Shown here: positions 7,513 to 28,269 of the stretch, in pieces
Layout: the number at the start of each line of letters is the position of its first letter
Position numbering within the stretch: the stretch's first letter is position 1
NCBI GenBank assembly: GCA_038823825.1
Contig: JAWBCC010000003.1
Span: forward strand, 69,351 to 133,350
Direction of reading: 5' to 3'
Length of the DNA: 64,000 bases
Origin: Candidatus Hadarchaeales archaeon
Lineage (GTDB): Archaea; Hadarchaeota; Hadarchaeia; Hadarchaeales; Hadarchaeaceae
The notes under the pieces: generated by a model
Seen by the model: only the letters and a program-made list of their open reading frames with translations
Databases searched by the model: none
What the model was told of the DNA's origin: nothing
Position numbers and translations under genes: made by a program

Positions 7513-7917
7513 TCATTTTTGCTCGGACACAGCCAGCCAGCTTTCCCAAAGATGGGGGACGGTGTCTAAGGACTTCATTTCCTCTGGGGTAATCCATCTT
7601 GCCTCCACATGCTCCCAGTCAATCTTCACCTCTCGATTTCTTACACGAAATCTAAAAGGATGAATTACCCAGATAATCCCGAGTTCCTCGTCCTTAAACT
7701 CGTATGGTTCTCCCTCCGCCATCAGTTCGAAATCCTGAATGCCGGTCTCTTCTCGTATTTCTTTTTCGGCAGCTTCTCTAGGGGTTTCTCCCTCTTCGAT
7801 GTAGCCAGCCACGGCGCCCCATTTACCTTGGTAAGTTCCAACTTTTTCGCTTCTTTTAAGCAAGAGAATCTTGCCCTCGCACTCTACGAAGCATGTTACG
7901 ACTCGTTTCCTGAGCAT
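7513..7917 (-). CDS. NUDIX hydrolase
   Basis: Nudix box GYIEEGETPREAAEKEIREETG (Gx5Ex7REUxEExGU). Confidence 0.85.
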   Translation of the reverse strand: MLRKRVVTCFVECEGKILLLKRSEKVGTYQGKWGAVAGYIEEGETPREAAEKEIREETGIQDFELMAEGEPYEFKDEELGIIWVIHPFRFRVRNREVKIDWEHVEARWITPEEMKSLDTVPHLWESWLAVSEQK

Positions 7918-7970
7918 ACAATAGAATTTGCAAAGAGATTTATTTATCTCATTACGATATTCTCTACGGA

Positions 7971-8046
7971 GGGCCCGTGGTCTAGTGGTTATGACATCAC
8001 CCTGACACGGTGAAGGTCGTGGGTTCGAATCCCACCGGGCCCACCA
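7971..8046 (+). tRNA. tRNA-Val (anticodon GAC)
   Basis: Acceptor GGGCCCG/CGGGCCC. Anticodon stem TCACC/GGTGA with loop CTGACAC gives GAC. T arm GTGGG-TTCGAAT-CCCAC. CCA encoded. Confidence 0.85.
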
Positions 8047-8114
8047 TCGTCAAAATTTTCAAAAATTTTACTAGAAAAATTTATTAACTCTCTTTGTGAA
8101 TAACTCAGGTTATT

Positions 8115-9146
8115 ATGAGAACCACACCATACTTTGTGGAAAAGGTGAAAGCGATAGAAGTCAAAGGAAAGAGAATCTCCGAACTTCTTAAGGAGATGGG
8201 AGACACAGGTTTTCAAGGAAGAAAGCTCGCAGAAGTCGTTGATGTTTGGGAGGAGATGATAAAGCAAAAAGATCTCACGATAATAATGGGATTGACGGGC
8301 TCAATGAGCACAACCGGCATGTGGAAGATTATCTGTTGGTTAATCGAAAATCGATATATCGATATCTTGGTTTCCACCGGTGCAAATATTTCCGAGGACA
8401 TACTTGATGCCATGGGTGCGGGCTATTGGAAGGGTTCTCACCTCGTTGATGACGAGGATCTGCTGCGTCACAAAATAGACAGATTCTACGATGTTTTTGC
8501 GGACGAGCTCGAATACCGGAAAATGGAGGAATTGATTGCAGAATTCATGAAGTCTATCGATGTGAACAAACTGTACACAACTAGGGAGTTCCTCTATAAA
8601 TTTGGTAAATGGCTGGATGAGCGCGGAATTTATTGTATACTCTCTGCAGCATACAGACATAAGGTCCCAGTCTACTGTCCAGCCCTTGTCGATAGCGGAT
8701 ATGGAATAGCTTCCCTTTGTGCGGAGAATAATCTGATGATAGACATGATGGAGGATTTTCGAGAACTCGTTCATGCTCTTAAAGACAGCAAGACGGGCGT
8801 GATTTACATAGGAGGAGGGGTCCCGAAAGATTTCGTTCAGCTTGTTGCAGTGGGTAGGGAATACCTACACGGTTGGAAAAATGTTCATCCTCATGAGTAC
8901 GCTATTCAGATTACTACGGATTCTCCACAGTGGGGAGGACTCAGCGGATGTACTCTAGAAGAAGCGGTTAGTTGGGGAAAGACCTCTCCAAAGGGAAAGA
9001 AGATCACATGTTATTGTGATGCCACAATTGCTCTTCCGTTTGTTTCACATGCTCTAGCGGAGAGAATAGGAAAGCCTAGAAAGGGCCCTGATTTTTCAGA
9101 GCTTTGCGAGAGAGAACTAAAAATTTATATCACCACAAAAAAATAA
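8115..9146 (+). CDS. dys: Deoxyhypusine synthase
   Basis: 343 aa. Motifs IIMGLTGSMSTTG, VSTGANISEDILDAMG, IYIGGGVPKDF and C-terminal CDATIALPFV resemble DHS NAD/spermidine-binding regions. Confidence 0.65.
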   Translation: MRTTPYFVEKVKAIEVKGKRISELLKEMGDTGFQGRKLAEVVDVWEEMIKQKDLTIIMGLTGSMSTTGMWKIICWLIENRYIDILVSTGANISEDILDAMGAGYWKGSHLVDDEDLLRHKIDRFYDVFADELEYRKMEELIAEFMKSIDVNKLYTTREFLYKFGKWLDERGIYCILSAAYRHKVPVYCPALVDSGYGIASLCAENNLMIDMMEDFRELVHALKDSKTGVIYIGGGVPKDFVQLVAVGREYLHGWKNVHPHEYAIQITTDSPQWGGLSGCTLEEAVSWGKTSPKGKKITCYCDATIALPFVSHALAERIGKPRKGPDFSELCERELKIYITTKK

Positions 9147-18502: not shown

Positions 18503-19306
18503 TTAAGGATGACTGGAGAACACTGGAATCGGGGCCGCTTTCGTACACTTTTCCCGATATCCGCACGCACCACATTTTTCAGCTTTTCTGGTCGGTTTGG
18601 CGTTTCTTCTTTCCTCCCAAAACGGTATCGCCCATTCAAGCTTTTCGATTGCGCTTTCCAGCGAGAAGGGGTACATCCAGACCACTAGTCCAGGAATGTC
18701 GAGATCAACCGGTTCTTTTTTATACAGTTCAGGTATGCTCAGCATGCATATTGTCTGGTTGAGACTCTCGATCTTTTCTCTGTTCAGATCGTGTGGTGCT
18801 ACAGAGATGGCGTATCTCAGCTCAGAAGTTTCGAAGCCAAGGTCATGGAGAAGATATCCGTAAACCAGAGCCTGAACGTGATAACTCGGAAAAATCTTCG
18901 GCTTTCTGGAAAACTTGTATTCGATGAGCAGCGTGGGTTTTCTGCGCCTGAAGAGTATATAGTCCGGTCTACCTGCGATTACGCATTCCCGGTACTTTCC
19001 GAGTAGAAGCATAGAAGCCCCAACCGTTGGCTTTTGAAATATGTCTCTCCAGAGATCCTCTCTTTTTACAGGAATCATGCCGGAAAGAGTCAGTTCATGC
19101 TTTTCATCACCCTTTTCCATTTCTTGGGTCTGAATCTTCCCGTAGGTGTATTTGAGTTCCACTTTTTTCTCGCAATAAAACTGTTCTGCTATCTCCGAGG
19201 CATTCACAAAATGTAGTCCAAAGCGGAGCCTTTTTTTACTCTCTTTTGCTTCCTCCAGCAATGACATAAATCTTCTAAACGGTTTCCACCTTTTCATGGA
19301 ACCCAC
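18503..19306 (-). CDS. Cas4-family (DUF83) PD-(D/E)xK nuclease with a 4-Cys Fe-S cluster. It stands alone; no CRISPR array or other cas genes are in the window.
   Basis: N-terminal Cys in SEIAEQFYCEKK. Nuclease motifs GRPDYILF (D), LLIEYKFS (ExK) and YHVQALVYGYLL (QxxxY). C-terminal CGACGYREKC supplies three more Cys. Confidence 0.7.
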   Translation of the reverse strand: MGSMKRWKPFRRFMSLLEEAKESKKRLRFGLHFVNASEIAEQFYCEKKVELKYTYGKIQTQEMEKGDEKHELTLSGMIPVKREDLWRDIFQKPTVGASMLLLGKYRECVIAGRPDYILFRRRKPTLLIEYKFSRKPKIFPSYHVQALVYGYLLHDLGFETSELRYAISVAPHDLNREKIESLNQTICMLSIPELYKKEPVDLDIPGLVVWMYPFSLESAIEKLEWAIPFWEERRNAKPTRKAEKCGACGYREKCTKAAPIPVFSSHP

Positions 19307-19388
19307 AAAACTAAATTAGGGTTTTGTCATAAAATACGCTTGGGCAGTTAACAAGATCCCACAAACGAGAGTAGTTTTTTAAATTTCG

Positions 19389-19826
19389 TTGTTTATAAAG
19401 GAGCTTCATTCAATCAGCTTGTGGGTTGTTTTGTCAGGTGTTCGGATATCATCGCCGCATGACATATTTGCTCTCGTAAAAGGAGATTTCTCGAATGATA
19501 GCGAAAAGGTGGAGCTTGTAATGCTAGATTCGATGTGCAACGTTCTCGCAAAGGAAATTGTTTCCGAGGGAAGCGAGAACTCGGCTCCCCTCCATCCCCG
19601 TCAAGTGCTTGCCGTGGCTCTTCGATATCCGACGGTTTTCATTGTTCTTGTTCATAACCATCCGAAAGGTTGTGTGGAACCCAGCGAGGAGGATATAGAG
19701 GTAACGAGGAAAATTGCAAAGGCTGGAAAAATGGTTGGCGTTTACCTACTCGATCACCTGATAATTGGGAATGGGAAATTCTTTAGTTTCCTTCAGCAAG
19801 GTCTAATTTCTCCTTCAATTAGATAA
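19389..19826 (+). CDS. RadC-like JAB/MPN domain protein
   Basis: JAMM-type motif VLVHNHPKGCVEPSEEDIEVTRKIAKAGKMVGVYLLDHLII (HxHPxG...S..D) typical of RadC/DUF2466. Divergently transcribed from the Cas4-like gene. TATA-like boxes lie in the 80-bp spacer. Confidence 0.75.
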   Translation: MFIKELHSISLWVVLSGVRISSPHDIFALVKGDFSNDSEKVELVMLDSMCNVLAKEIVSEGSENSAPLHPRQVLAVALRYPTVFIVLVHNHPKGCVEPSEEDIEVTRKIAKAGKMVGVYLLDHLIIGNGKFFSFLQQGLISPSIR

Positions 19827-19864
19827 GCAGAAATTAAAGCTGCTTATCAGATAAGTTTATATGC

Positions 19865-21646
19865 ATGAAAGAAGAAAATTATAAGATTAATTTGGCAAAA
19901 AGAATCGACAGATGGCTAGAAAATAGGCGAATTTTGCTCATGAAAACTTTTGGGACTAGAGAATTTACCCGTAGAGAAGCTACAGATGTCCTAAAAGAAA
20001 AATTTGGTGATGATGAGAAAGCAGTTGCTGCAGTTCTCTCGGAGTTAAAGCATGCTGGTTATCTCGAGATGAGACCGGATCCTACTGACGCCAGGAAAAC
20101 GATATACTGCCTAAAAGAAGTCAAGATTCTCAAGCCTGAAACAGAGGAGCTGACAAGGGATGAGCTAGAATCGCTCCTAAAAAGAGCCGCGGATCTCATA
20201 CGAACTCGTGTTGATTACAAGTTCATTCTCATTCTGCTCTTTCTCAAGAGAATAAGTGATAAGTGGGAGATGGAGTTTAAACAGGTTTACGAGCAGCTTC
20301 TCCGGAATGGACTTTCGGAGGAAGAAGCCGAGGAGGAAGCTAAGAGCAGCATCTACCACGAGTTTGATTTGCCTGAGAAGTTCCTTTGGGAAAACCTTCG
20401 CAAAGATGTGGCTAGACTCCCGGAGAGACTCGCTGAATGTCTCAAAACCCTCGCCGAACGCAACCCGGAGTTGAAGGATGTGGTGGATAGGGGAGATTTT
20501 CTCCAGTTTGCGAGAAGTTCGGAAAATGCGGAGATTTTGAGGCAGCTTGTTGAACTCTTCAGTTCTCGCAAGCTCCACCACGTTTCTCCCGATGTGCTCG
20601 GAGACGCGTATGAATGGGTTTTGAGGTACTTTGCTCCGGAAAAGGCGAAAGAGGGAGAAATCTACACACCAAGGGAGGTCATAAAACTGCTCGTTGAGAT
20701 TTTGAATCCGAAATCTGGAGAATCTGTTTATGATCCAGCGTGCGGATCGGGTGGAATGCTCATTTTGTCGTTCAAGAATGTGGAGGAAAAGGAGGGGAGG
20801 GAGGCAACCCGAAAGCTCTCCTTGTACGGACAGGAGGCAAACCGGGAGATTTTCGCTCTCTGCAAAATGAATATGTACATCCACGATATTAGGGATGTCA
20901 ACATTGAGTGGGGTGATACGCTTCTCTATCCAAAGTTCATTGAGGGGAACAGGCCAAAGACTTTCGACGTTGTGATGGCGAATCCACCTTGGAATCAGGA
21001 TGGTTATCACGAGGAGGTTCTGAAGAAGGGAGAGTTCTGGGGAGAGAGGTTTGTCTACGGTTTCCCGCCCAAACAGTCTGCGGACTGGGCATGGATTCAG
21101 CATATGCTGGCTTCCGCCGACGGGAAAAACGGAAGGGTTGGGGTTGTTATAGACAACGGTTGTCTGTTCAGGGGAGGGAAGGAGCGGGCAATAAGGGAGA
21201 GGGTGCTGAGAGATGACCTGCTGGAGTGCGTGATCCTTCTGCCGGAGAAGCTCTTTTATAACACCGGAGCCCCGGGAGCCATTCTGATTTTCCGTAAACA
21301 TAAGCCAGCCGAGAGGAAGGGGAAGATCCTGTTCATTAACGCGAGCCAGGAGTATGAGAAGCATCCAGAGGTGAGGAAGCTGAACAGGCTTGGGGAGGCA
21401 AACATAAGGAAGATCGCTGAGGCCTACAGGAACTTCAAGGATGTTGAGGGTTTCGCCAGAGTGGTTTCGCTGGGGGAGGTGAGGGAGAACGATTACAATC
21501 TAAACGTCACGCTGTACGTCTTTCCGGAGGAGAAGGTCGAGGAGATAGACGTGGCGAAGGAGTGGGAGGAACTCCGCAAGATTGAGAAGGAAATTACAGA
21601 GGTTGAGGAGAAGATTCAGGGATATTTGAGGGAGGTTGGAGGTTAA
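19865..21646 (+). CDS. hsdM: Type I restriction-modification system methyltransferase subunit HsdM
   Basis: N6-adenine MTase motifs DPACGSGGML (motif I) and ANPPWNQDGY (motif IV, NPPW). Typical N-terminal HsdM domain. 593 aa. Confidence 0.9.
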   Translation: MKEENYKINLAKRIDRWLENRRILLMKTFGTREFTRREATDVLKEKFGDDEKAVAAVLSELKHAGYLEMRPDPTDARKTIYCLKEVKILKPETEELTRDELESLLKRAADLIRTRVDYKFILILLFLKRISDKWEMEFKQVYEQLLRNGLSEEEAEEEAKSSIYHEFDLPEKFLWENLRKDVARLPERLAECLKTLAERNPELKDVVDRGDFLQFARSSENAEILRQLVELFSSRKLHHVSPDVLGDAYEWVLRYFAPEKAKEGEIYTPREVIKLLVEILNPKSGESVYDPACGSGGMLILSFKNVEEKEGREATRKLSLYGQEANREIFALCKMNMYIHDIRDVNIEWGDTLLYPKFIEGNRPKTFDVVMANPPWNQDGYHEEVLKKGEFWGERFVYGFPPKQSADWAWIQHMLASADGKNGRVGVVIDNGCLFRGGKERAIRERVLRDDLLECVILLPEKLFYNTGAPGAILIFRKHKPAERKGKILFINASQEYEKHPEVRKLNRLGEANIRKIAEAYRNFKDVEGFARVVSLGEVRENDYNLNVTLYVFPEEKVEEIDVAKEWEELRKIEKEITEVEEKIQGYLREVGG

Positions 21647-22301
21647 ACAAATGAAAAGATCAAATGATGAGATTCGCGAGTTAATTCTAAGAGAATTATA
21701 TGAAGTTCACAAAAAAGCTAGGAGTCTAAAAGCCACGGGAAAAAGCATAAGCGAGTTGAAACGCCAACTTAAGAAGCAATATGGACTAAGTGAAAAAGAA
21801 ATTGTGCCCAATCTTGATTTTTTAATCCAATGCGGTTGGGTAAAGGTAGAGAAAGAAACATCCGAGTTTAAAACTCCAAGAGGGTTTATAAAGAAACAGG
21901 AGAAAGGTATCTTCAAAATTTCAGATATGGGTATCAACTATTTTGAAGGACAATCCAAATTCCAAAGGATAGAGAGATCGCTTGCTGGTATAAACATAAC
22001 TAATATAGGTGGGGTCACAGTCTTAGGGGACGGAAATGTAGTTGTAAATGTAAACTATGTTGATTTATACAAAGAACTGTCTATGCTTTCAGAGATCATA
22101 AGAAAAAGTGATCAACTCAAAGATGTTGACAAATTAAACTACATCGCGGAAATTGAAACAATAAAATCCCAGTTGATGAAACCGGAACCTGACAAGAACA
22201 TAATAAAGCAAGCTTGGGAAAAACTAAAGCCACTTGCAACTATTGCTGGCATAGCTTCGTTTTTCGAGCGAGTTGTTAAATTAATGGGGGCATTGTTTTG
22301 A
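21636..22301 (+). CDS. Uncharacterized 221-aa protein embedded between hsdM and hsdS (N-terminal wHTH-like region, C-terminal coiled-coil/Gly-rich region)
   Basis: Overlaps hsdM by 11 nt and hsdS by 4 nt, so it is translationally coupled inside the R-M operon. Very AT-rich coding sequence. No recognizable catalytic motif. Confidence 0.5.
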   Translation: MEVKQMKRSNDEIRELILRELYEVHKKARSLKATGKSISELKRQLKKQYGLSEKEIVPNLDFLIQCGWVKVEKETSEFKTPRGFIKKQEKGIFKISDMGINYFEGQSKFQRIERSLAGINITNIGGVTVLGDGNVVVNVNYVDLYKELSMLSEIIRKSDQLKDVDKLNYIAEIETIKSQLMKPEPDKNIIKQAWEKLKPLATIAGIASFFERVVKLMGALF

Positions 22302-23563
22302 AAACCGGTTACAAACAAACGCCAATCGGTAGTATCCCGAAGGAGTGGGAGGTTGTCAGGCTTGGGGATATTTCTAAGGTATCTTCGGGGAATACAGCAC
22401 CGCAAGATAAAAAATATTTTGAAAATGGGAAATATCCTTTCATAAGAGTTCAGCACCTTAGTACATTGCTAGAAAATAAATATCCTATTATTTGCGATTT
22501 TGTAAATGACTTGGCTGTTGAGGAACTCAAATTGAAAAAATTCAAGAAAGGTTCTATAATATTTCCGAAAAGCGGGGAGTCTATAAGGCTTGAAAAAAGG
22601 GCGATACTAAGAGAGGATTCCTATGTGGTAAACCACTTAGTTGTTGTCGAAGTTTTTTCAAATAACGTAGATACAAACTTTTTATATTATTATTTGTCAA
22701 GCCTCAGAACAAGTAGTTACCTTTCTAAAACTACAATGCCATCACTCAATCTTTCAGTCATTAAATCATTTTTAATCCCCCTCCCACCCCTCCCCGAGCA
22801 ACGTAAGATCGCCGAGATCCTCTCAACAGTCGACCAAGCCATCCAGAAGGTGGACGAAGCCATAGCCCGGACTGAGAGGTTGAAGCGTGGGCTGATGCAG
22901 AGGCTGCTCACCCGGGGTATAGGGCACAGGGAGTTCAAGGACACGGAGATAGGGAGGATTCCGAGGAAGTGGGAGGTTGTCAGGCTTGGAGACAAAAAAA
23001 TTACAGAAGAACTTTTCTACGGTATAACCGCTAAAGCTGTCGATAAGGATACTGGAGTAAAAATGTTGAGAACTACGGATATCAAAGAGTATTCTGTGGA
23101 CTGGGAAAAACTTCCTTTTTGTGAAATCACTGAAAGGAGGGGTAACTTAACTAGATATCTTCTGAAGAAAGGAGACCTGATTGTAGCAAGGGCTGGAACT
23201 GTGGGCGTTTCTATTCTTGTGGATAGAGATTTTGACAACGTGATTTTCGGATCATATCTGATAAAAGTGAAGCTAAAACCAAGCATACATCCAAAATTTG
23301 TTCACTATTTCTTCCAATCCTCACTTTATTGGAAACACCTGCAAAAGGCTCAAGGAAGTACTTTAAAAAACGTAAACCTGCCTTTGTTAAAATCTCTCAA
23401 GATCCCCCTCCCACCCCTCCCCGAGCAGCGCAAGATCGCCGAGATCTTCTCAATCGTCGACAAAAAGCTCGAACTCGAAAGAAAAAGGAAGGAAAAACTC
23501 GAGCGGATCAAGAGGGGTCTGATGAACGATTTGCTCACCGGGAAAAAGAGGGTGAAGATATGA
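22298..23563 (+). CDS. hsdS: Type I R-M specificity subunit HsdS (two target-recognition domains)
   Basis: Duplicated conserved segments: IGSIPKEWEVVRLGD and IGRIPRKWEVVRLGD open the two TRDs. LIPLPPLPEQRKIAEILSTVD and KIPLPPLPEQRKIAEIFSIVD form the central and C-terminal conserved coiled-coil regions. Confidence 0.85.
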   Translation: MKTGYKQTPIGSIPKEWEVVRLGDISKVSSGNTAPQDKKYFENGKYPFIRVQHLSTLLENKYPIICDFVNDLAVEELKLKKFKKGSIIFPKSGESIRLEKRAILREDSYVVNHLVVVEVFSNNVDTNFLYYYLSSLRTSSYLSKTTMPSLNLSVIKSFLIPLPPLPEQRKIAEILSTVDQAIQKVDEAIARTERLKRGLMQRLLTRGIGHREFKDTEIGRIPRKWEVVRLGDKKITEELFYGITAKAVDKDTGVKMLRTTDIKEYSVDWEKLPFCEITERRGNLTRYLLKKGDLIVARAGTVGVSILVDRDFDNVIFGSYLIKVKLKPSIHPKFVHYFFQSSLYWKHLQKAQGSTLKNVNLPLLKSLKIPLPPLPEQRKIAEIFSIVDKKLELERKRKEKLERIKRGLMNDLLTGKKRVKI

Positions 23564-24534
23564 TTGACCAACATTTGGAAAAAGAAAGAGTGATCGTGGA
23601 CGAAAAATTAAAACAAAATGAAGAGACCAAAGTATACGAAATTTTTCGTGAAGTTATGAAGAGTTATCTCGGAGTAGAAATAGAAAAAGAAAAGGCAGGA
23701 CGAATTTTAGAATTTTTCATGACAGTAATGTATAACTTGACTTTGAATCCAAGCGCCATCGTTAGAGGGTACTACCTTTGCGCAGAGCAAGATTATGAAG
23801 CCGCTAAGTTATTGAGTAAAAAATTTCCCTCCCTCGCCGTTTTTCATTTACAACAGACCGTAGAAAAAATAACTAAAGCTTACGCGCTCCACATGGGATT
23901 GATAAAAGAAGAAGAATCGTATAAAAAACGAGGAAATAAAGTCGGGACCGAAGTTGTTGGTCATATCTCACCTAAGGCTTTTATTTTGTTGTTGAAGAAA
24001 AGAGGCGCTGCAGAATTCGTCGATACGGTTTTTCTTGCATGTCCAGAAATTCCCAAAATAACTGTTAAAGAAGTTCTTCAAAAATTCGAAAAATTACTAC
24101 AAAAAACGGATGAATTGGCAAAACTCTCAAAAAATGAAATAAACCATTTTATAAAAAGATGCGAAGACATCCAAGACGCCATTAGAAAAATTGACATCAG
24201 GAAAACAAGGGAAAATTTCAAACGCCTCAAAGTAGGGTTTATTGCAAGACTAAGATCTGCGGTTTCACCAGAGATAGTTGAAGATATCAAGAAAAAATTT
24301 AACGCGATAGAAAGGAAGATCGGTTCAATAATCAATGAACTTCTAACGTTTTCGCAACTATATGCTCTGGCGATAATCACCTTTCCGCACTTCTCCTACA
24401 GTCGATACCCTGGAGGCAAAATAACATTTGCTGACTATCACGAAGGGCTGGGTATAGTAGATTCTCTCGATGATATTTTGATCTCTATCGGTTCTATTAT
24501 GAAAAGTCTAGAAAAAATTTGTGCGAGAGGGTGA
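23560..24534 (+). CDS. HEPN-like domain protein (324 aa) inserted between hsdS and hsdR, in the PrrC position
   Basis: Start ATG at 23560 overlaps the hsdS stop (ATGA). AEQDYEAAKLLSKKFPSLAVFHLQQTVEKITKAYALHMG matches the PF05168-type HEPN N-terminal helix pattern (A..D...A..LL..g.y..a.f.a.Qa.EKalKA). A C-terminal SRYPGG recalls the HEPN RYPd motif but sits after an unusually long ~200-aa insert. Confidence 0.4.
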   Translation: MIDQHLEKERVIVDEKLKQNEETKVYEIFREVMKSYLGVEIEKEKAGRILEFFMTVMYNLTLNPSAIVRGYYLCAEQDYEAAKLLSKKFPSLAVFHLQQTVEKITKAYALHMGLIKEEESYKKRGNKVGTEVVGHISPKAFILLLKKRGAAEFVDTVFLACPEIPKITVKEVLQKFEKLLQKTDELAKLSKNEINHFIKRCEDIQDAIRKIDIRKTRENFKRLKVGFIARLRSAVSPEIVEDIKKKFNAIERKIGSIINELLTFSQLYALAIITFPHFSYSRYPGGKITFADYHEGLGIVDSLDDILISIGSIMKSLEKICARG

Positions 24535-24536
24535 AA

Positions 24537-27500
24537 ATGCCAATCTTTACCGAAAAATCCACTGTTGAAAGCTACATCATAGAAAAGCTGAAGGAAAAAG
24601 GCTGGAAGCATGTTCCCGGAGAAGAATTAGAGCGAGAAGACTACTCCGAACCGCTTTTGGTGAGGCATCTTCTTGAAGCAATCCACAGAATAAACCCCCA
24701 CCTAACCCTGACAAAAAAGGATCTGGACAGAATTCTGCTAGAACTCAGGAGCCTTCCATCCACATTTGATGGTTCCAAGCGACTGCTCAAGTTCCTAAAA
24801 GAAGGAATCCCAATAGAACTGGAAAAAACAGGAGAACTCAGATATGTCTCTCTGCTCGATTACGAAAACCCAAAGGAGAAAAACGAGTTCATCGTAAGCG
24901 ACCAAGTACCTTTCCACGGGCCTAAAGAAAGATGTAGACTTGACATAGTCCTCTACGTAAACGGAATCCCGCTTGTAGCAATAGAGTGCAAAAACCCGAC
25001 CGACCCGACCAGAGACTGGGAAACTGCCTATAAACAGATAAAATCTTACGAAAAGGCTGTCCCAGAACTCTTCAAGTATGTCCAGTTCAGCATAGCCGCC
25101 GCCGCGACCACCAGATATTTCCCGAACGTCTTAGGAGCCGAGGATGTCAAAATCTACTTCCCTAAAGGGAAAGATACTCCCGAGTCCCTGGATCGAACAC
25201 TTGACCTCCTCCTAAATCCAGACGCTCTCCTCGATCTTGTTGCAAACTTCATTTTCGCGAGGGAAGAGCATGGAAAGTTCACAAAAGTTTTGCCCTACTA
25301 CTACCAGTACGAAGGCGCCAACCAAATCTACCAAAGAGTCCTTAACAACCTGTCTGAGAAGGAAAAAAAAGAGAAGGGGTTGATCTGGCATTGGCAGGGT
25401 TCCGGAAAAACCCTCACGATGATTTACGCCGCCCGTAAACTTTACCTTTGCCCCCTGCTTGAAAACCCCACCATCTTCTTCGTCGTCGACAGAGAGGAGC
25501 TTGAGGAGCAACTGTTTAAAGAATTTTCTTTCTTAGACCTCGGCATACCCTCACCTGAGGTCATTTCTTCGATCGAGCACCTCCGTCAGATTCTGACCTA
25601 TGACGAGGGAAGAGGAAAGAGGGGGATGTTCATCACTCTCATTCACAAGTTCGGCGAAAAGCTTGCCGATCTCGTTTTTGAGGACAAGGACATGAAAAAC
25701 ATTTCAAACAGGAGAAACGTCATCGTTTTAATAGACGAGGGACATCGGACGCAGTACGGAGAGTATGCCGGCCGTATGCGAGGCATACTCAAGAAAGCTT
25801 TCTTCTTCGCTTTCACGGGAACTCCTTTCTCCACGAAAAAGAGAGATACCTTCGCCGCTTTTGCTTATCCCGAGGAGGGCGAACTCTATCTTCACAAATA
25901 TTTTGTCCGAGAATCAATTGAAGACGGTTTTACCCTCCCCATTGTTTTCCAGACTAGGATGGAAAAAGAGGTCGGCCTAGAAAAAGAACTACTGGAAGAG
26001 TTTTTGGAGCAAGAGCTGGAGGAAATCACCGAAGAATCCCTCCGCCTCGCCCTAGAAGGAAAAATCAGCAGACGATTGACCCAGATCGTTGTATTCTTTG
26101 AGAATCCAGAAAGAATAGAAAAGATTGCCAGCGATATCGCCACTCATTTCAAGGAAAACGTGGACGGAAAGTTCAAAGGCATGGTTGTGGCGGCTTCAAG
26201 AAAAGCGTGCATCTATTATAAGGAGGCTCTCGATCGGCTGCTGGGACCGGAATACTCCGAGATTGTTATGACGTTCAATCCTCGCACGGACCCCGAACCG
26301 ATCAAATCCTATTACGAAAAGTTGAGGCAGAAATATCATGGCAAGGAGATTGAGGAAATCTGGGATGAGATAATCGAGAAGTTCAAAGAAAGGGAATATC
26401 CGAAAATTTTAATCGTCACGGACAAACTTCTGACAGGTTTTGATGCTCCAATTCTCCAAGTGATGTATCTAGACAAGCCGCTGAAGGAACATAGGCTTCT
26501 TCAAGCAATAGCAAGAACCAATCGTCCATTCAAAGAACTAAAACCAGCGGGTCTCATCATAGACTATGTCGGAATTCTCAAAGAATTCGAAAAAGCCGTG
26601 GCCATTTACGAAAAGCAGGATATTCAGTACGTAGGCTTCAAGCCGGAAGAAAAGATAGATGAGCTTCGAAAGCTTATCAGCGATGCGGAGGAGACCCTTG
26701 AGGGTGTGGATAAAACAAAAACCGATTTTGAAACTCTTAAAGCCGCAGCAAAACTGCTCTTTCATTATCCAGAAAAGCAGAGAAAATTCTCCCAAACGTA
26801 CAAACAGGCTAGAAATCTTTACGAGTTTCTTCTCCCCTTCGGGCTGGACAAGAAGACTGTGGAGAGATTCAAATGGCTGGCCGCAGTCTACAACTTTCAT
26901 CGCCAATGGGTGGAGCAGGAGAAGTCAGAGGAAATGGAAGAAAACTTTAGAAAATTCTATCCAAGAGTTGTTGAGCGCGTTCACAAGGCCATCCAAATAG
27001 AAATGAAAGAAGAGTTTCCAAGTTTAACGCTTGATAAAGAATATCTTGAACGGTTGGGCAGATTGGGTTTAGAAGACCAAGTTTATAACATGGTTTTCGG
27101 TCTAAACAAATATATCCGCGTAGACCGTCCGTTCAGTCCTATTTATGAACCAATCGCCAAACGCGTGGAAAAACTAGTTGAAAGGTGGCGAAACAAAAAG
27201 ATTTCGGTCGAGGAGGCTTATAACGAAGCAGTTTCCATTTTGCAGGAAACGAGAAAAACCGAGGAGAGAATAAAAACGCTCGGATTCTCAGAGCCAGAAT
27301 ACTTCATTCTCAAAGTTCTTGAAAAGGAACTGGGAGAATCTGAGGATCTAGTCCAAGAAGTCCGGAGTCTCTGGAGAAAATGGGAGAAGACTGGAAAAAT
27401 ATTCCCAGGATGGACTCGAAAAATGAGTATCCTAAAGGAACTCGTGCGAGATATAAGAATGTTCATGGTAAAGAAAGGTATCCCACTTAAAAGGAGGGAA

Positions 27501-27545
27501 GAGCTCTGTGAGGAGATCATCAACGGACTCAAGGCCACTTCATAA
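24537..27545 (+). CDS. hsdR: Type I R-M restriction subunit HsdR (SF2 helicase/endonuclease)
   Basis: Walker A WQGSGKT, DEAH-box VLIDEGHRTQ, helicase C-terminal motifs (QAIARTNR), ~1000 aa. Start taken at the ATG at 24537 (MPIFTEK...). Confidence 0.9.
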   Translation: MPIFTEKSTVESYIIEKLKEKGWKHVPGEELEREDYSEPLLVRHLLEAIHRINPHLTLTKKDLDRILLELRSLPSTFDGSKRLLKFLKEGIPIELEKTGELRYVSLLDYENPKEKNEFIVSDQVPFHGPKERCRLDIVLYVNGIPLVAIECKNPTDPTRDWETAYKQIKSYEKAVPELFKYVQFSIAAAATTRYFPNVLGAEDVKIYFPKGKDTPESLDRTLDLLLNPDALLDLVANFIFAREEHGKFTKVLPYYYQYEGANQIYQRVLNNLSEKEKKEKGLIWHWQGSGKTLTMIYAARKLYLCPLLENPTIFFVVDREELEEQLFKEFSFLDLGIPSPEVISSIEHLRQILTYDEGRGKRGMFITLIHKFGEKLADLVFEDKDMKNISNRRNVIVLIDEGHRTQYGEYAGRMRGILKKAFFFAFTGTPFSTKKRDTFAAFAYPEEGELYLHKYFVRESIEDGFTLPIVFQTRMEKEVGLEKELLEEFLEQELEEITEESLRLALEGKISRRLTQIVVFFENPERIEKIASDIATHFKENVDGKFKGMVVAASRKACIYYKEALDRLLGPEYSEIVMTFNPRTDPEPIKSYYEKLRQKYHGKEIEEIWDEIIEKFKEREYPKILIVTDKLLTGFDAPILQVMYLDKPLKEHRLLQAIARTNRPFKELKPAGLIIDYVGILKEFEKAVAIYEKQDIQYVGFKPEEKIDELRKLISDAEETLEGVDKTKTDFETLKAAAKLLFHYPEKQRKFSQTYKQARNLYEFLLPFGLDKKTVERFKWLAAVYNFHRQWVEQEKSEEMEENFRKFYPRVVERVHKAIQIEMKEEFPSLTLDKEYLERLGRLGLEDQVYNMVFGLNKYIRVDRPFSPIYEPIAKRVEKLVERWRNKKISVEEAYNEAVSILQETRKTEERIKTLGFSEPEYFILKVLEKELGESEDLVQEVRSLWRKWEKTGKIFPGWTRKMSILKELVRDIRMFMVKKGIPLKRREELCEEIINGLKATS

Positions 27546-28269
27546 AGTGCTGAGGATAGAAGGAGAAAGCATACCTTATACTGTCGAATGGAGGAAAGTG
27601 AAATATCCGCGTTTGGAACTGAAAACCGGGAAGCTAAAGATAATTCTTCCAAAAGGAGTAAAGGACGAAACACCCATTCTGGAAAGAAATCTCCAGTGGA
27701 TACTTAAAAGGCATGAAGAAATCAAGAGGGCAAAGGAGAACATAGCAAACTCCTTGAGCGGAAATGGGATTCTCATCTTCGGCTCTTTCTATAAAGTCGA
27801 GCCGGGCATACCCCTCGTCATTTTCCTGAACGGGATACAGAAAAAGTTCGACCTGATGAAAGAAAGAGACCAGGTTAAACTAAGAAACTTTCTAAAAAAG
27901 ATTCTGAGAGAGGAGCTGAGGAAGTTAGTGAACCACTATTCATCAAAATTTGGTCTGAGATTCGGAAGAATATACATAAGAAACCAGAAAACAAAATGGG
28001 CAAGTTGTTCCTCCTCGGGTAACCTGAGCTTTAACTTCCGGCTTGTTCACGTACCATATGATATTTTAAAGTATGTTGTCTGTCATGAGGTTCTTCACCT
28101 AGCTGAAAAAGGTCATTCGAAAAAATTCTGGGAAAAAATCAGAGAGGAGTTTCCAAACTACAAAGAGATGGAGAAAAAACTTTTCGAATACTGGTTTTTC
28201 ACGATGGATTCCCAATTTCCAGATATTCGTTTTATTGGAAAGCGAAAAACCTCAAGAAATTTGGAATGA
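27508..28269 (+). CDS. DUF45/YgjP-like (WLM/SprT-like) zinc metallopeptidase, commonly linked to type I R-M hsdR
   Basis: HExxH motif in VVCHEVLHLAEKGHSKKFWEKI. Size and placement immediately after hsdR (overlapping its 3' end) are typical of this family. Confidence 0.7.
   Translation: MRRSSTDSRPLHKVLRIEGESIPYTVEWRKVKYPRLELKTGKLKIILPKGVKDETPILERNLQWILKRHEEIKRAKENIANSLSGNGILIFGSFYKVEPGIPLVIFLNGIQKKFDLMKERDQVKLRNFLKKILREELRKLVNHYSSKFGLRFGRIYIRNQKTKWASCSSSGNLSFNFRLVHVPYDILKYVVCHEVLHLAEKGHSKKFWEKIREEFPNYKEMEKKLFEYWFFTMDSQFPDIRFIGKRKTSRNLE

Follow-up and report, generated by a model that had tools for sequence, protein, structure and literature searches.

What role does a small gene have when it lies exactly between hsdM and hsdS, in the middle of an archaeal type I restriction-modification (R-M) operon? 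Nested genes in operons of the restriction, BREX and related kinds have been a fruitful source of new defence systems. To our knowledge, few nested defence genes have been described in archaea, and very few are non-enzymatic. We examined one such gene, here called gene X, in a stretch of Candidatus Hadarchaeales DNA of 64,000 nucleotides (the window), together with the operon that contains it and its homologues in other genomes.

The original prediction placed an open reading frame at 21636..22301 (+) between hsdM and hsdS, and this frame is indeed present with both genes as its direct neighbours (Table 1). Read from the TTG at 21636 it would encode 221 amino acids. We consider this start less likely than the ATG at 21651; the alignment of X homologues begins at the methionine of that ATG, and a candidate ribosome binding site precedes it. 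With the likelier start, the proposed 11-nt overlap with hsdM gives way to a 4-nt gap between the hsdM stop codon (TAA, 21644-21646) and gene X. The proposed 4-nt overlap with hsdS proved real, and exactly the same overlap is found at 33 of 48 homologous junctions. This arrangement indicates that X is translationally coupled to hsdS and that the coupling is a conserved state. The suggested AT-richness of the gene was also borne out: its GC content of 35.6% is below that of the window (45.5%) and of hsdM (48.4%). Within the operon, AT content is highest in X and in a second embedded gene at the hsdS-hsdR junction.

Table 1. Features of gene X and of the operon that contains it; positions count from the first nucleotide of the window.
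Feature	Position	Strand	Description
RadC-like JAB gene, operon head	19389..19826	+	Pfam RadC 5e-36
hsdM	19865..21646	+	593 aa; Pfam N6_Mtase 1e-113, HsdM_N at residues 101-232
GGAGG, ribosome binding site-like	21637..21641	+	9 nt upstream of ATG 21651, within the last hsdM codons
Gene X	21651..22301	+	216 aa, from ATG 21651 to TGA 22301
Winged helix-turn-helix of X (predicted)	21651..21950	+	Residues 1-100; long beta-hairpin wing; basic, pI 9.6
Conserved motif of X, GINITNIGGVTVLGDGNVVVNVNY	21987..22058	+	Residues 113-136, 24 aa; N/G/V/I-rich beta motif
Four-helix bundle of X (predicted)	22050..22298	+	About residues 134-213/216; signature EIETIKxQLxKPxPDKxII...W
X/hsdS junction, TTGA	22298..22301	+	TTG start of hsdS overlaps TGA stop of X by 4 nt
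hsdS	22298..23563	+	421 aa; Pfam Methylase_S 1e-51, two stretches
Second embedded gene, hsdS-hsdR junction	23563..24534	+	323 aa; GC 36.3%
hsdR	24537..27545	+	About 1002 aa; Pfam HSDR_N, SWI2_SNF2, T1R_D3-like, ResIII
YgjP-like metallopeptidase gene	27508..28269	+	Pfam YgjP-like 1.7e-41; overlaps the end of hsdR

The hsdM product carries an extra N-terminal extension of ~100 aa which is itself winged-helix-like, and a direct comparison indicates that it is unrelated to the winged helix of X (BLASTP E 7.3). The hsdS gene encodes two target-recognition domains (TRDs) and contains internal direct repeats, D1 and D2. The product of the second embedded gene is weakly HEPN-like (Pfam HEPN E 1e-3, under the curated cutoff), and homologues of this gene hold the same position in two related loci (L031 and L052). 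The YgjP-like gene that follows hsdR is a conserved partner in most related operons.

A Candidatus Hadarchaeales MAG encodes a 'hypothetical protein' that is 100% identical to X. A first search returned homologues in 142 clusters at 90% identity, and an exhaustive search extended the family to at least 574 clusters at 50% identity (E<=1e-3). Almost all members have 205-230 aa and a single architecture; matches of 130-165 aa, considered as forms consisting of the motif and bundle only, turned out to be calls that are truncated at the N-terminus and otherwise share this architecture. One member (P0254) is fused to HTH_36, sigma-70 region 4 and zinc-ribbon segments, and no domain was detected in the N-terminal extensions of three others (P0135, P0183 and P0210). 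The homologues are all annotated as 'hypothetical' and belong to no Pfam or NCBIfam family, and no published description of the family was found in the literature on PDC-M14, on genes between hsdM and hsdS, or on nSTAND1 partners.

An artefactual reading frame, whether a duplicated fragment of an hsdS TRD, an insertion sequence (IS) remnant or a non-coding spacer, would be suggested solely by the unusual position and the low GC content, and its likelihood is practically negligible. Full-length homologues number in the hundreds, dN/dS against them is 0.04-0.15, as expected for strong purifying selection over the full length, and the AlphaFold2 (AF2) fold of X is confident. A TRD fragment and an IS remnant were the two origins that the original prediction had named as fatal to its proposal, and neither is seen: X compared with the adjacent HsdS gave a BLASTP E of 4.4 and no match to Pfam Methylase_S, and X matches no transposase family in Pfam and is not flanked by terminal inverted repeats within 19300-24600. 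X is a real, conserved protein-coding gene of an unnamed family.

The protein has a predicted architecture of three parts. The winged-helix-like N-terminus followed by a helical region, proposed from the sequence, is supported on both counts by the predicted fold. The winged helix is of a DNA-binding type and PadR/MarR-like, and the predicted structure combines it with a C-terminal helical region of the dimerisation type, as in the PadR/MarR fold. Its nearest structural relatives are transcription regulators, an observation which sits uneasily with an immune role. The recognition helix (EKEIVPNLDFLIQ) is acidic and hydrophobic. X has no match to PadR, MarR, MarR_2 or HTH_xx at gathering score, none to HTH_3/HTH_XRE in Pfam, and none to any Pfam family at E<=0.01. 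Scans against NCBIfam and PHROGs gave nothing significant (the NCBIfam matches were noise only), the family profile had a single spurious match, to a designer-PPR, among PDB sequences, and Foldseek against viral structures returned only generic winged-helix matches (E>1e-3). The absence of an enzymatic motif had been anticipated correctly, in that X matches no enzymatic family in Pfam or NCBIfam.

A conserved segment, FEGxSKFQR (residues 98-106), precedes the motif, in which 19 of the 24 residues are N, G, V or I. Three positions of the motif are invariant (G126, N129 and N133) and five nearly so (G113, I114, N118, G121 and D127). AF2 models it as a hairpin at low confidence (pLDDT 56-72), and a six-frame scan of the window found no second copy. 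This internal motif is what had been described as a Gly-rich tail, and the supposed C-terminal coiled-coil is predicted to be a compact four-helix bundle (residues 134-213; pLDDT 92.7 and pTM 0.84 in a model of the C-terminal domain only). The bundle is generic and has no detectable relation to Bell, HeLo, MLKL or Bab. Conservation in X is highest in the linker motif and the bundle, not in the recognition helix.

The genomic distribution of the family was evaluated in 74 informative non-redundant loci. The order hsdM-X-hsdS is found in 34 of them and recurs across HsdM lineages that are 25-70% identical to the HsdM of the window, which supports the earlier view that the position is biologically meaningful. 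X lies in or beside a type I locus in some other arrangement in 8 loci, and hsdM or hsdS adjoins X in 11 further loci at contig edges. The other 32 copies are solo one-gene cassettes that are accompanied by no type I genes and often reside in defence islands. The family occurs in archaea and some bacteria, and the type I slot is occupied across several archaeal phyla and in some thermophilic bacteria. The contexts of some distant bacterial relatives are not obviously defensive.

On the tree, the embedded copies comprise one large archaeal clade, which includes the Hadarchaeales copy, and at least two independent captures; embedding beside very different HsdM proteins (25-26% identity) is seen in L012 and L018. 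Embedding is stable over the phylogeny, with 6 changes vs 24 expected, and persists down to about 45% identity, and the solo state appears ancestral. Identities of X and of HsdM are uncorrelated (rho -0.07) and there is therefore no signal of co-evolution between them. X stays directly upstream of hsdS despite genes inserted between hsdM and X in L035 and L071, and a small ORF separates X from hsdS in five loci (L004, L034, L036, L037 and L039). Other defence genes are also found at the hsdM-hsdS junction, namely SoFic in L035 and a SIR2/pAgo-associated-like gene in L071. These comparisons indicate that a large archaeal clade of the family was captured at the hsdM-hsdS junction and has been retained there. 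Such long retention, together with the coupling to hsdS, also fits a tie to the methyltransferase and to that extent speaks against an immune module.

Solo copies have in common ~130-170 nt upstream and ~90 nt downstream of the gene, beyond which the flanks are unrelated. The upstream regions had resembled tRNA 3' ends, and no intact tRNA was found beside X in the solo loci. Neighbouring genes of the solo copies encode a PLD nuclease, Mrr-NACHT-WD40, SLFN/AlbA_2, KAP NTPase, type III Mod, TIR, AbiJ, Fic, a pPIWI-associated nuclease, an Eco57I methylase and MzaA. Clustering of the neighbours revealed no recurrent partner of X beyond hsdM and hsdS. As a one-gene cassette, the family moves through defence islands in archaea and some bacteria. 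Two roles suggested at the outset can be set aside. An anti-restriction factor of viral origin is not supported: no match to X was found in 50,697 phage records, and the 2.9 million contigs of IMG/VR contain only three distant relatives. The idea of an extra specificity or phase-variation component is at odds with a region in which no inverton, simple repeats or recombinase were found, and with the occurrence of X apart from R-M genes in its solo loci.

The rear half of X links it to proteins in two other settings. Four PDC-M14B HMMs match the C-terminal half (best E 3.5e-8), and in every family member tested the match is confined to residues ~100-215. PDC-M14 is a phage-defence candidate identified through guilt-by-embedding and included in PADLOC (Payne et al. 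2024, bioRxiv 10.1101/2024.01.29.577857), and is a two-gene cassette, FAM_02625>>FAM_00494. PDC-M14B and X are alike in being embedded in R-M/BREX-type systems and in being candidates. The match is not full-length, since X aligns with profile positions ~155-260 only; the profiles have 261-276 positions, of which the N-terminal ~155 are unmatched by X, which has its winged helix there. No PDC-M14A partner of X was found among 80 neighbours or selected small upstream ORFs, and in the window X is preceded by hsdM.

The second setting is a cyanobacterial family of ~170-aa proteins, itself unnamed, to which the motif and bundle of X align with an hhalign probability of 97.8% (E 8e-13, 105 columns). 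The two have in common the motif region and the four-helix bundle, including the KPxPDK signature, and differ at the N-terminus, where the cyanobacterial proteins have a short conserved helix in place of the winged helix. In 4 of the 4 loci examined, the cyanobacterial gene lies upstream of an nSTAND1-WD40 gene and is coupled to it by 4 nt (for example Nostoc WP_179052045 / WP_179052046). Both kinds of gene are thus coupled to the gene downstream, which is an nSTAND1-WD40 ATPase gene in the cyanobacteria and hsdS in the case of X. Similar motifs occur in the small cyanobacterial proteins and at the N-termini of the ATPases, for example SQNIGGINIGSGNSDIAFNQ and QQNISNVSIGDSNVVTFNQ, although this likeness is statistically weak (z about 2-4 vs shuffles). 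Unlike the cyanobacterial proteins, X has no NLR-like ATPase partner, and no ORF with a partner motif was found in 115 related loci searched with a motif HMM or in the window. By these profile comparisons, the motif and bundle half of X is homologous both to the partner proteins of nSTAND1-WD40 ATPases and to the C-terminal half of PDC-M14B.

Because X has long been held at the junction in many archaeal operons and its rear half is related to NLR partners, we tentatively favour the explanation that X serves as an accessory immune module housed in the type I R-M operon and not as a subunit of the enzyme. The winged helix would stand in for a separate NLR-type sensor, with DNA or a DNA-like or DNA-bound invader cue as its ligand. 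On binding, X would self-assemble through the strand motif, comparable to the short motifs common to NLRs and effectors in signalling of the amyloid type. The assembled bundles would then produce an output, either growth arrest or cell death, or would recruit another factor. The host would thereby gain a second line of defence that is expressed and transferred along with the methyltransferase core. The defence-island neighbours, the homology to NLR partners and the homology to PDC-M14B lean towards an autonomous module of the defence type. X might more specifically be a single-chain immune switch of a new kind that combines a winged-helix sensor, a prion/amyloid-like assembly motif and a new helical output domain, a proposal that we regard as quite unlikely in this full form.

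Control of transcription is still considered, as the fold of X resembles PadR/MarR regulators, and we judge it unlikely. X would then control the operon as a PadR/MarR-like protein and be the type I counterpart of a C protein. As a dimeric winged-helix repressor or activator made together with M and S, it would either feed back on the promoter or gate the expression of hsdR and cargo, and in this way methylation would be established before restriction in a new host. The basic N-terminal domain fits such a role, as do the linkage of X to several types of DNA methyltransferase (type I, type III Mod and Eco57I-like) and the fusion in P0254, but X belongs to no HTH sequence family, PadR and MarR included, and its conservation peaks in the linker motif and bundle while the recognition helix is acidic and hydrophobic. 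The conserved region upstream of the solo cassettes could hold an auto-operator; in the operon of the window, X lies mid-operon and not ahead of regulated genes, and neither an inverted repeat of >=16 nt nor an operator candidate was found in 19300-24600, shorter operators being below the reach of that scan. Promoters were scanned with a sigma-70 model, and those of the archaeal host fall outside such a model. X is also found solo with unrelated neighbours and beside very different R-M lineages with presumably different promoters, and its rear half is common to partners of NLR-like ATPases, which is not the context of a regulator.

More doubtful again is a role in the HsdM2S core, either as an accessory subunit or as a modulator, in which X would associate with M and/or S and adjust DNA targeting, assembly with HsdR or restriction alleviation, or might shield the complex from DNA-mimic anti-restriction proteins. 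The place directly upstream of hsdS is strictly kept, overlap included, even where genes are inserted between M and X, the embedded state is long-lived, and unrelated type I lineages have acquired X anew at this junction, all of which would be expected of a subunit. Against this stand the many loci devoid of type I genes, the apparently ancestral solo state, the lack of a co-evolution signal with HsdM and the small ORFs that separate X from hsdS in several loci; ordinary type I systems such as EcoKI and EcoR124I, as far as we know, require no such subunit. It is highly improbable that X is a selfish or neutral hitch-hiker, either an addiction or exclusion gene or a DNA binder resembling a xenogeneic silencer, which exploits a well-expressed and often-transferred hsdM-hsdS junction and gives no aid to host defence. 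Its behaviour as a mobile one-gene cassette with flanks of its own, its AT-richness relative to the host and its variable neighbours, which include IS, toxin-antitoxin and integrase genes, would suit a hitch-hiker, but the gene is under strong purifying selection over its full length, its neighbours are enriched for defence genes, its rear half is homologous to NLR-partner proteins and it is nearly absent from viral collections.

The significance of these findings lies in part in the family itself, which is large, has neither a name nor a Pfam model and occupies one precise slot in type I operons. The rear half of X ties together archaeal R-M operons, cyanobacterial NLR-like pairs and an embedded bacterial candidate, and defines a common module, so that a test of its role in one of these contexts could inform the other two. 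If the reading of the motif as an assembly element is true, X would provide a compact, testable model of a defence signal that operates without a separate NLR. Were X a single-chain switch, the cyanobacterial nSTAND1-WD40 ATPases would use the same output module in trans, the switch would have been wired into type I R-M operons in archaea, motif-templated signalling of the amyloid type would reach the restriction systems of archaea, and a new effector or adaptor domain would be common to PDC-M14B, the nSTAND1 partners and the X family. Should X prove to be a controller, no earlier example of a protein dedicated to transcription control would have been described in type I R-M systems.

Comparison with known systems places the favoured immune module among several partial likenesses. 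C proteins are Xre-type HTH proteins of ~80-100 aa, encoded ahead of the R gene and acting at palindromic C-box operators. Like them, X is encoded within an R-M operon, but it is a 216-aa winged-helix protein of non-Xre type in a mid-operon position. PrrC is encoded between hsdS and hsdR and combines ABC-ATPase and HEPN nuclease domains. PrrC and RloC resemble X as accessory genes nested in hsdMSR and co-transferred with it, with the logic of a guard behind the R-M system. X differs in its place at the hsdM-hsdS junction and in having no enzymatic domain, with matches to ATPase and HEPN families absent; the PrrC-like position in the window is held by the weakly HEPN-like second embedded gene.

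The remaining comparison is with amyloid-signalling pairs, namely Bell-BASS/NLR (Dyrka et al. 2020) and the Bab/Agp abortive infection system (Ibarlosa et al. 2024). In those pairs, the adjacent NLR or sensor carries a matching motif, which is absent in X loci; X has no motif-bearing partner, and templating by a sensor, the core of the amyloid model, therefore cannot apply to it as such. The domain order is also reversed in X, where the motif precedes the helical domain, and the bundle is not of the Bell/HeLo/MLKL effector type. Bacterial amyloid signalling motifs have 20-25 aa and are rich in Q, N, G, V and I (bioRxiv 10.1101/2020.01.06.895854), and the motif of X matches them in both length and composition. 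As in the amyloid pairs, X has an N/G/V/I-rich motif of ~24 aa beside a small helical domain, and the homologues of its module adjoin NLR-like ATPases which carry a similar N-terminal motif and are joined to them by a 4-nt gene overlap.

The 221-aa open reading frame reported between hsdM and hsdS in the original prediction is present as listed, and Pfam confirms the identity of both flanking genes. Within it, an RBS-like GGAGG at 21637-21641 precedes an in-frame ATG at 21651, and the alignment of homologues begins at the methionine of this codon. These features point to the ATG as the most likely start of the gene (here X), leaving a 4-nt gap behind the hsdM stop codon (TAA, 21644-21646) in place of the 11-nt overlap first described. 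The 4-nt overlap with hsdS holds, with the TGA stop of X (22299-22301) set against the earliest possible hsdS start (TTG, 22298), as does the AT-richness of the gene (GC 35.6%, against 45.5% for the window, 48.4% for hsdM and 36.3% for the second embedded gene of the operon).

Features of the restriction-modification operon containing X and of the divergent gene at its head, with coordinates in the window
Feature	Coordinates	Strand	Basis
PD-(D/E)XK Cas4-like nuclease gene	18503-19306	-	Pfam
RadC/JAB gene	19389-19826	+	Pfam
hsdM, 593 aa	19865-21646	+	Pfam N6_Mtase 1e-113, HsdM_N
X, ORF as listed, 221 aa from TTG	21636-22301	+	ORF listing
X, likeliest gene, 216 aa from ATG	21651-22301	+	Sequence and homologue alignment
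hsdS, 421 aa	22298-23563	+	Pfam Methylase_S 1e-51
Second embedded gene, 323 aa	23563-24534	+	Weak Pfam HEPN, E 1e-3, under cutoff
HsdR gene	24537-27545	+	Pfam
YgjP-like (DUF45) metallopeptidase gene	27508-28269	+	Pfam

X is a genuine gene, and the family to which it belongs is large and unnamed. A "hypothetical protein" encoded in a Candidatus Hadarchaeales MAG matches its product at 100% identity, and the product has 142 homologous clusters, none of them named or carrying a Pfam domain, the best 120 of which show 47-78% identity and derive from Bathyarchaeia, Caldarchaeum and others. An exhaustive profile search recovered 574 clusters at 50% identity with E<=1e-3 (113 with E<=1e-30), almost all of 205-230 aa and matching X over its full length. 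Genome scans added Methanosuratincola, Methanomicrobia, Archaeoglobaceae and Woesearchaeota among the archaea and Aquificaceae, Levybacteria, KSB1, Actinomycetes, Gammaproteobacteria and Patescibacteria among the bacteria, and dN/dS of X against its homologues is 0.04-0.15. No member of the family occurs in 50,697 phage records, and IMG/VR nearly lacks it, with three distant matches only. Sequence comparison found no similarity to HsdS, Pfam gave no transposase match and no flanking inverted repeats were found; X is therefore neither the hsdS fragment nor the IS remnant that the original prediction had set against itself. The sole multi-domain architecture met in the family is that of P0254, a 540-aa protein from the representative search in which a full X-like region (residues 14-202) is joined to HTH_36, sigma-70 region 4 and zinc-ribbon-like segments, and which may be either genuinely fused or an artefact of gene calling.

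X encodes a three-part protein that is conserved and non-enzymatic. An alignment of 37 sequences yielded an AF2 model of mean pLDDT 88, in which residues 1-100 are predicted to fold as a winged helix whose wing is a long hairpin, in agreement with the winged-helix-like N-terminus proposed earlier. Confidence is low for residues ~100-133 (pLDDT 56-72), yet these are among the most conserved of the family and hold FEGxSKFQR and GINITNIxGVTVxGDxNxVVN; G100, S102, F104, Q105, G126, N129 and N133 are invariant. The motif proper (residues 113-136) comprises 24 aa, with N, G, V or I at 19 of them. Residues 134-213 are modelled as a four-helix bundle, reaching pLDDT 92.7 and pTM 0.84 when modelled alone, so that the supposed coiled-coil plus Gly-rich tail is replaced by a bundle following an internal Gly/Asn/Val-rich motif. 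Pfam, NCBIfam and PHROGs scans gave nothing, in line with the lack of an obvious enzymatic motif in the original prediction, and PDB sequence and viral-structure searches gave nothing specific.

A survey of the genomic context of the family drew on 27 genome loci, 80 metagenome loci and those around selected proteins (110+ in all), with ORFs labelled by comparison with the window's own Hsd proteins; 95 loci were non-redundant and 74 of these fully informative. The order hsdM-X-hsdS was found in 34 of the 74; in eight, X lay within or next to a type I locus, an additional gene intervening; and 32 had no detectable type I gene (solo X). In eleven further loci truncated by contig ends, hsdM or hsdS adjoins X. 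The X stop and hsdS start overlap by exactly 4 nt at 33 of 48 junctions, and the genes inserted between hsdM and X are of defence type (SoFic in locus L035 and, in L071, a SIR2/pAgo-associated-like protein). When 79 X proteins with embedded or solo states were placed on a neighbour-joining tree, embedded copies fell into one large clade that includes the window's X and shows a few reversions to solo; loci L012 and L018 branch among the solo lineages as independent embedded cases. At least 6 state changes are needed on this tree, whereas shuffled labels required 24 on average and never fewer than 16. Taken with the two separate cases, embedding is therefore old and stable, with X captured repeatedly at the same junction and translationally coupled there.

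X is also an autonomous cassette. Five Bathyarchaeia solo loci (L002 at ~7830-8750, L019, L091, L093 and L084) have in common ~130-170 nt upstream and ~90 nt downstream of X, beyond which their flanks are unrelated; the mobile unit is therefore X alone, a one-gene cassette that brings its own upstream region. The conserved upstream segment contains ...GCTGTTACGATGTTGATCATTCATCTAGATT...CTATTTTAAAC...GTTGCATTA..., and a GCGCGCGC run lies near the left edge of several of these cassettes. Upstream of solo X in L090 (~470-520), L098 and L101 are tRNA 3'-end-like sequences, e.g. ...GAGTTCGAATCTCACCCCCTGTACCA, at which ARAGORN found no intact tRNA and which may be attachment-site remnants of integrated elements. 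No recurrent neighbour of solo X was found; defence genes are frequent beside it (PLD nuclease, Mrr-NACHT-WD40, SLFN/AlbA_2, KAP NTPase, type III Mod, TIR, AbiJ, Fic, pPIWI-associated nuclease, Eco57I-type methylase, MzaA), and the contexts of some distant bacterial relatives are unremarkable.

Several other features of the operon were observed. The Cas4-like and RadC/JAB genes diverge at its head, a pair also present in L031 (metagenome contig Ga0105162_1005611). This contig matches window 18506-23563 with 99.4% identity over 3.9 kb, running from the Cas4-like gene through X to the first ~75 nt of hsdS before diverging; its hsdS is half-size (208 aa), with one different target-recognition domain, and a HEPN-like gene comes next. 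The pattern is one of population-level hsdS allele exchange beginning just 3' of X. HsdM carries ~100 additional N-terminal residues before HsdM_N (19865-20170, +) with a winged-helix-like sequence pattern; this extension is unrelated to the winged helix of X (BLASTP E 7.3), has no PADLOC match and is lacking from the HsdM (~510 aa) of some related operons. The second embedded gene, also without a PADLOC match, occupies the hsdS-hsdR slot, the position of PrrC in EcoprrI, and its homologues hold this slot in L031 and L052. Most related hsdM-X-hsdS...hsdR operons differ in the cargo at this junction (e.g. L066 9871-11784, L049 2397-3266, L061 4549-5487, L005 9879-11246, L009 2204-3811), which includes an OLD-family ATPase-TOPRIM nuclease, a HEPN protein, a weak FokI-cleavage-like protein and several family-less proteins; the S-R slot is therefore variable and the M-S slot always holds X. 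The YgjP-like gene overlaps the hsdR 3' end in the window and in most related operons, a conserved hsdR-ygjP pairing.

The sole library match to X came from PADLOC, in which four PDC-M14B profiles matched residues ~100-215 only (E 3.5e-8), and seven other family members matched in the same region. PDC-M14 is a two-gene "guilt-by-embedding" candidate, FAM_02625>>FAM_00494 (Payne et al. 2024, bioRxiv 10.1101/2024.01.29.577857); no A-type partner was present beside X among the neighbours checked. A tblastn search of plasmids gave one weak match, in Nostoc pTCL26-01_C, to a 172-aa hypothetical protein whose gene overlaps that of a 1215-aa WD40 protein by 4 nt; the family of this small protein is cyanobacterial and comprises 65 clusters. 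The small gene lies 4 nt upstream of a ~1200-codon nSTAND1-WD40 gene in four of four divergent loci. Profile-profile comparison of this family with the motif and bundle of X (probability 97.8%, E 8e-13, 105 columns) spans the motif region and the bundle, including a KPxPDK signature, and the cyanobacterial small proteins match PDC-M14B in the same region as X. Judged from these profiles, NLR-like ATPase partners and an embedded defence candidate are homologues of the rear module of X. The cyanobacterial unit (L115 5719-9881, Nostoc plasmid NZ_CP040300.1; L116, L118, L119) encodes a small protein of ~170 aa with a conserved MPKYSVSEVLDIIK... N-terminus, an N/G/S-rich motif and a four-helix bundle. 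Similar motifs occur in the small protein and at the ATPase N-terminus (SQNIGGINIGSGNSDIAFNQ and QQNISNVSIGDSNVVTFNQ; SQSMSGVTITGSSEIGLSQIQ and EQTIHDVSVVSSQNVTFNQTQ), their alignments within pairs scoring only 2-4 sd over shuffles. The unit looks like an undescribed NLR/effector pair, and our literature search found no paper describing a cyanobacterial ~170-aa/nSTAND1-WD40 pair.

We tentatively favor a role for X as an accessory immune module, in which the winged helix would stand in for a separate sensor, the strand motif would drive trigger-dependent self-assembly and the helical bundle would provide the output as effector or adaptor; no recognizable effector chemistry was found in X. Through embedding, X would be expressed and transferred together with the methyltransferase, like PrrC in EcoprrI. 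The main rival, that X is a PadR-like controller, draws on its fold and is somewhat less likely. An accessory subunit of M2S would suit the strict junction position, but is improbable given the solo state and the lack of co-evolution with HsdM: adjoining HsdM proteins range from 25% to 99% identity to that of the window, and the identities of X do not follow those of HsdM (rho -0.07).

Defence genes nested in type I operons are already known (PrrC; Payne et al. 2024). X could not be placed with HsdS or IS elements, C proteins, PDC-M14 as a system, Bell/BASS pairs as defined or PrrC/RloC, and its family is undescribed, lacks a Pfam or NCBIfam model and is only half-recognized by PADLOC candidate profiles. 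It offers a large, clean and testable family and an unexpected link between archaeal restriction-modification operons and cyanobacterial NLR-like systems. The amyloid-type signalling motifs of bacterial NLR/effector pairs are 20-25 residues long and rich in Q, N, G, V and I (bioRxiv 10.1101/2020.01.06.895854); the X motif is like them in length and composition and has an IGDxNVV core in common with the motifs of the cyanobacterial pairs, whose layout is that of the amyloid-type gene pairs. Unlike those pairs X has no partner, its motif being unique in the window and absent from neighbours in 115 loci. By analogy, X would function most similarly to the effector partner in an NLR/effector pair, its sensor being part of the same protein in cis.
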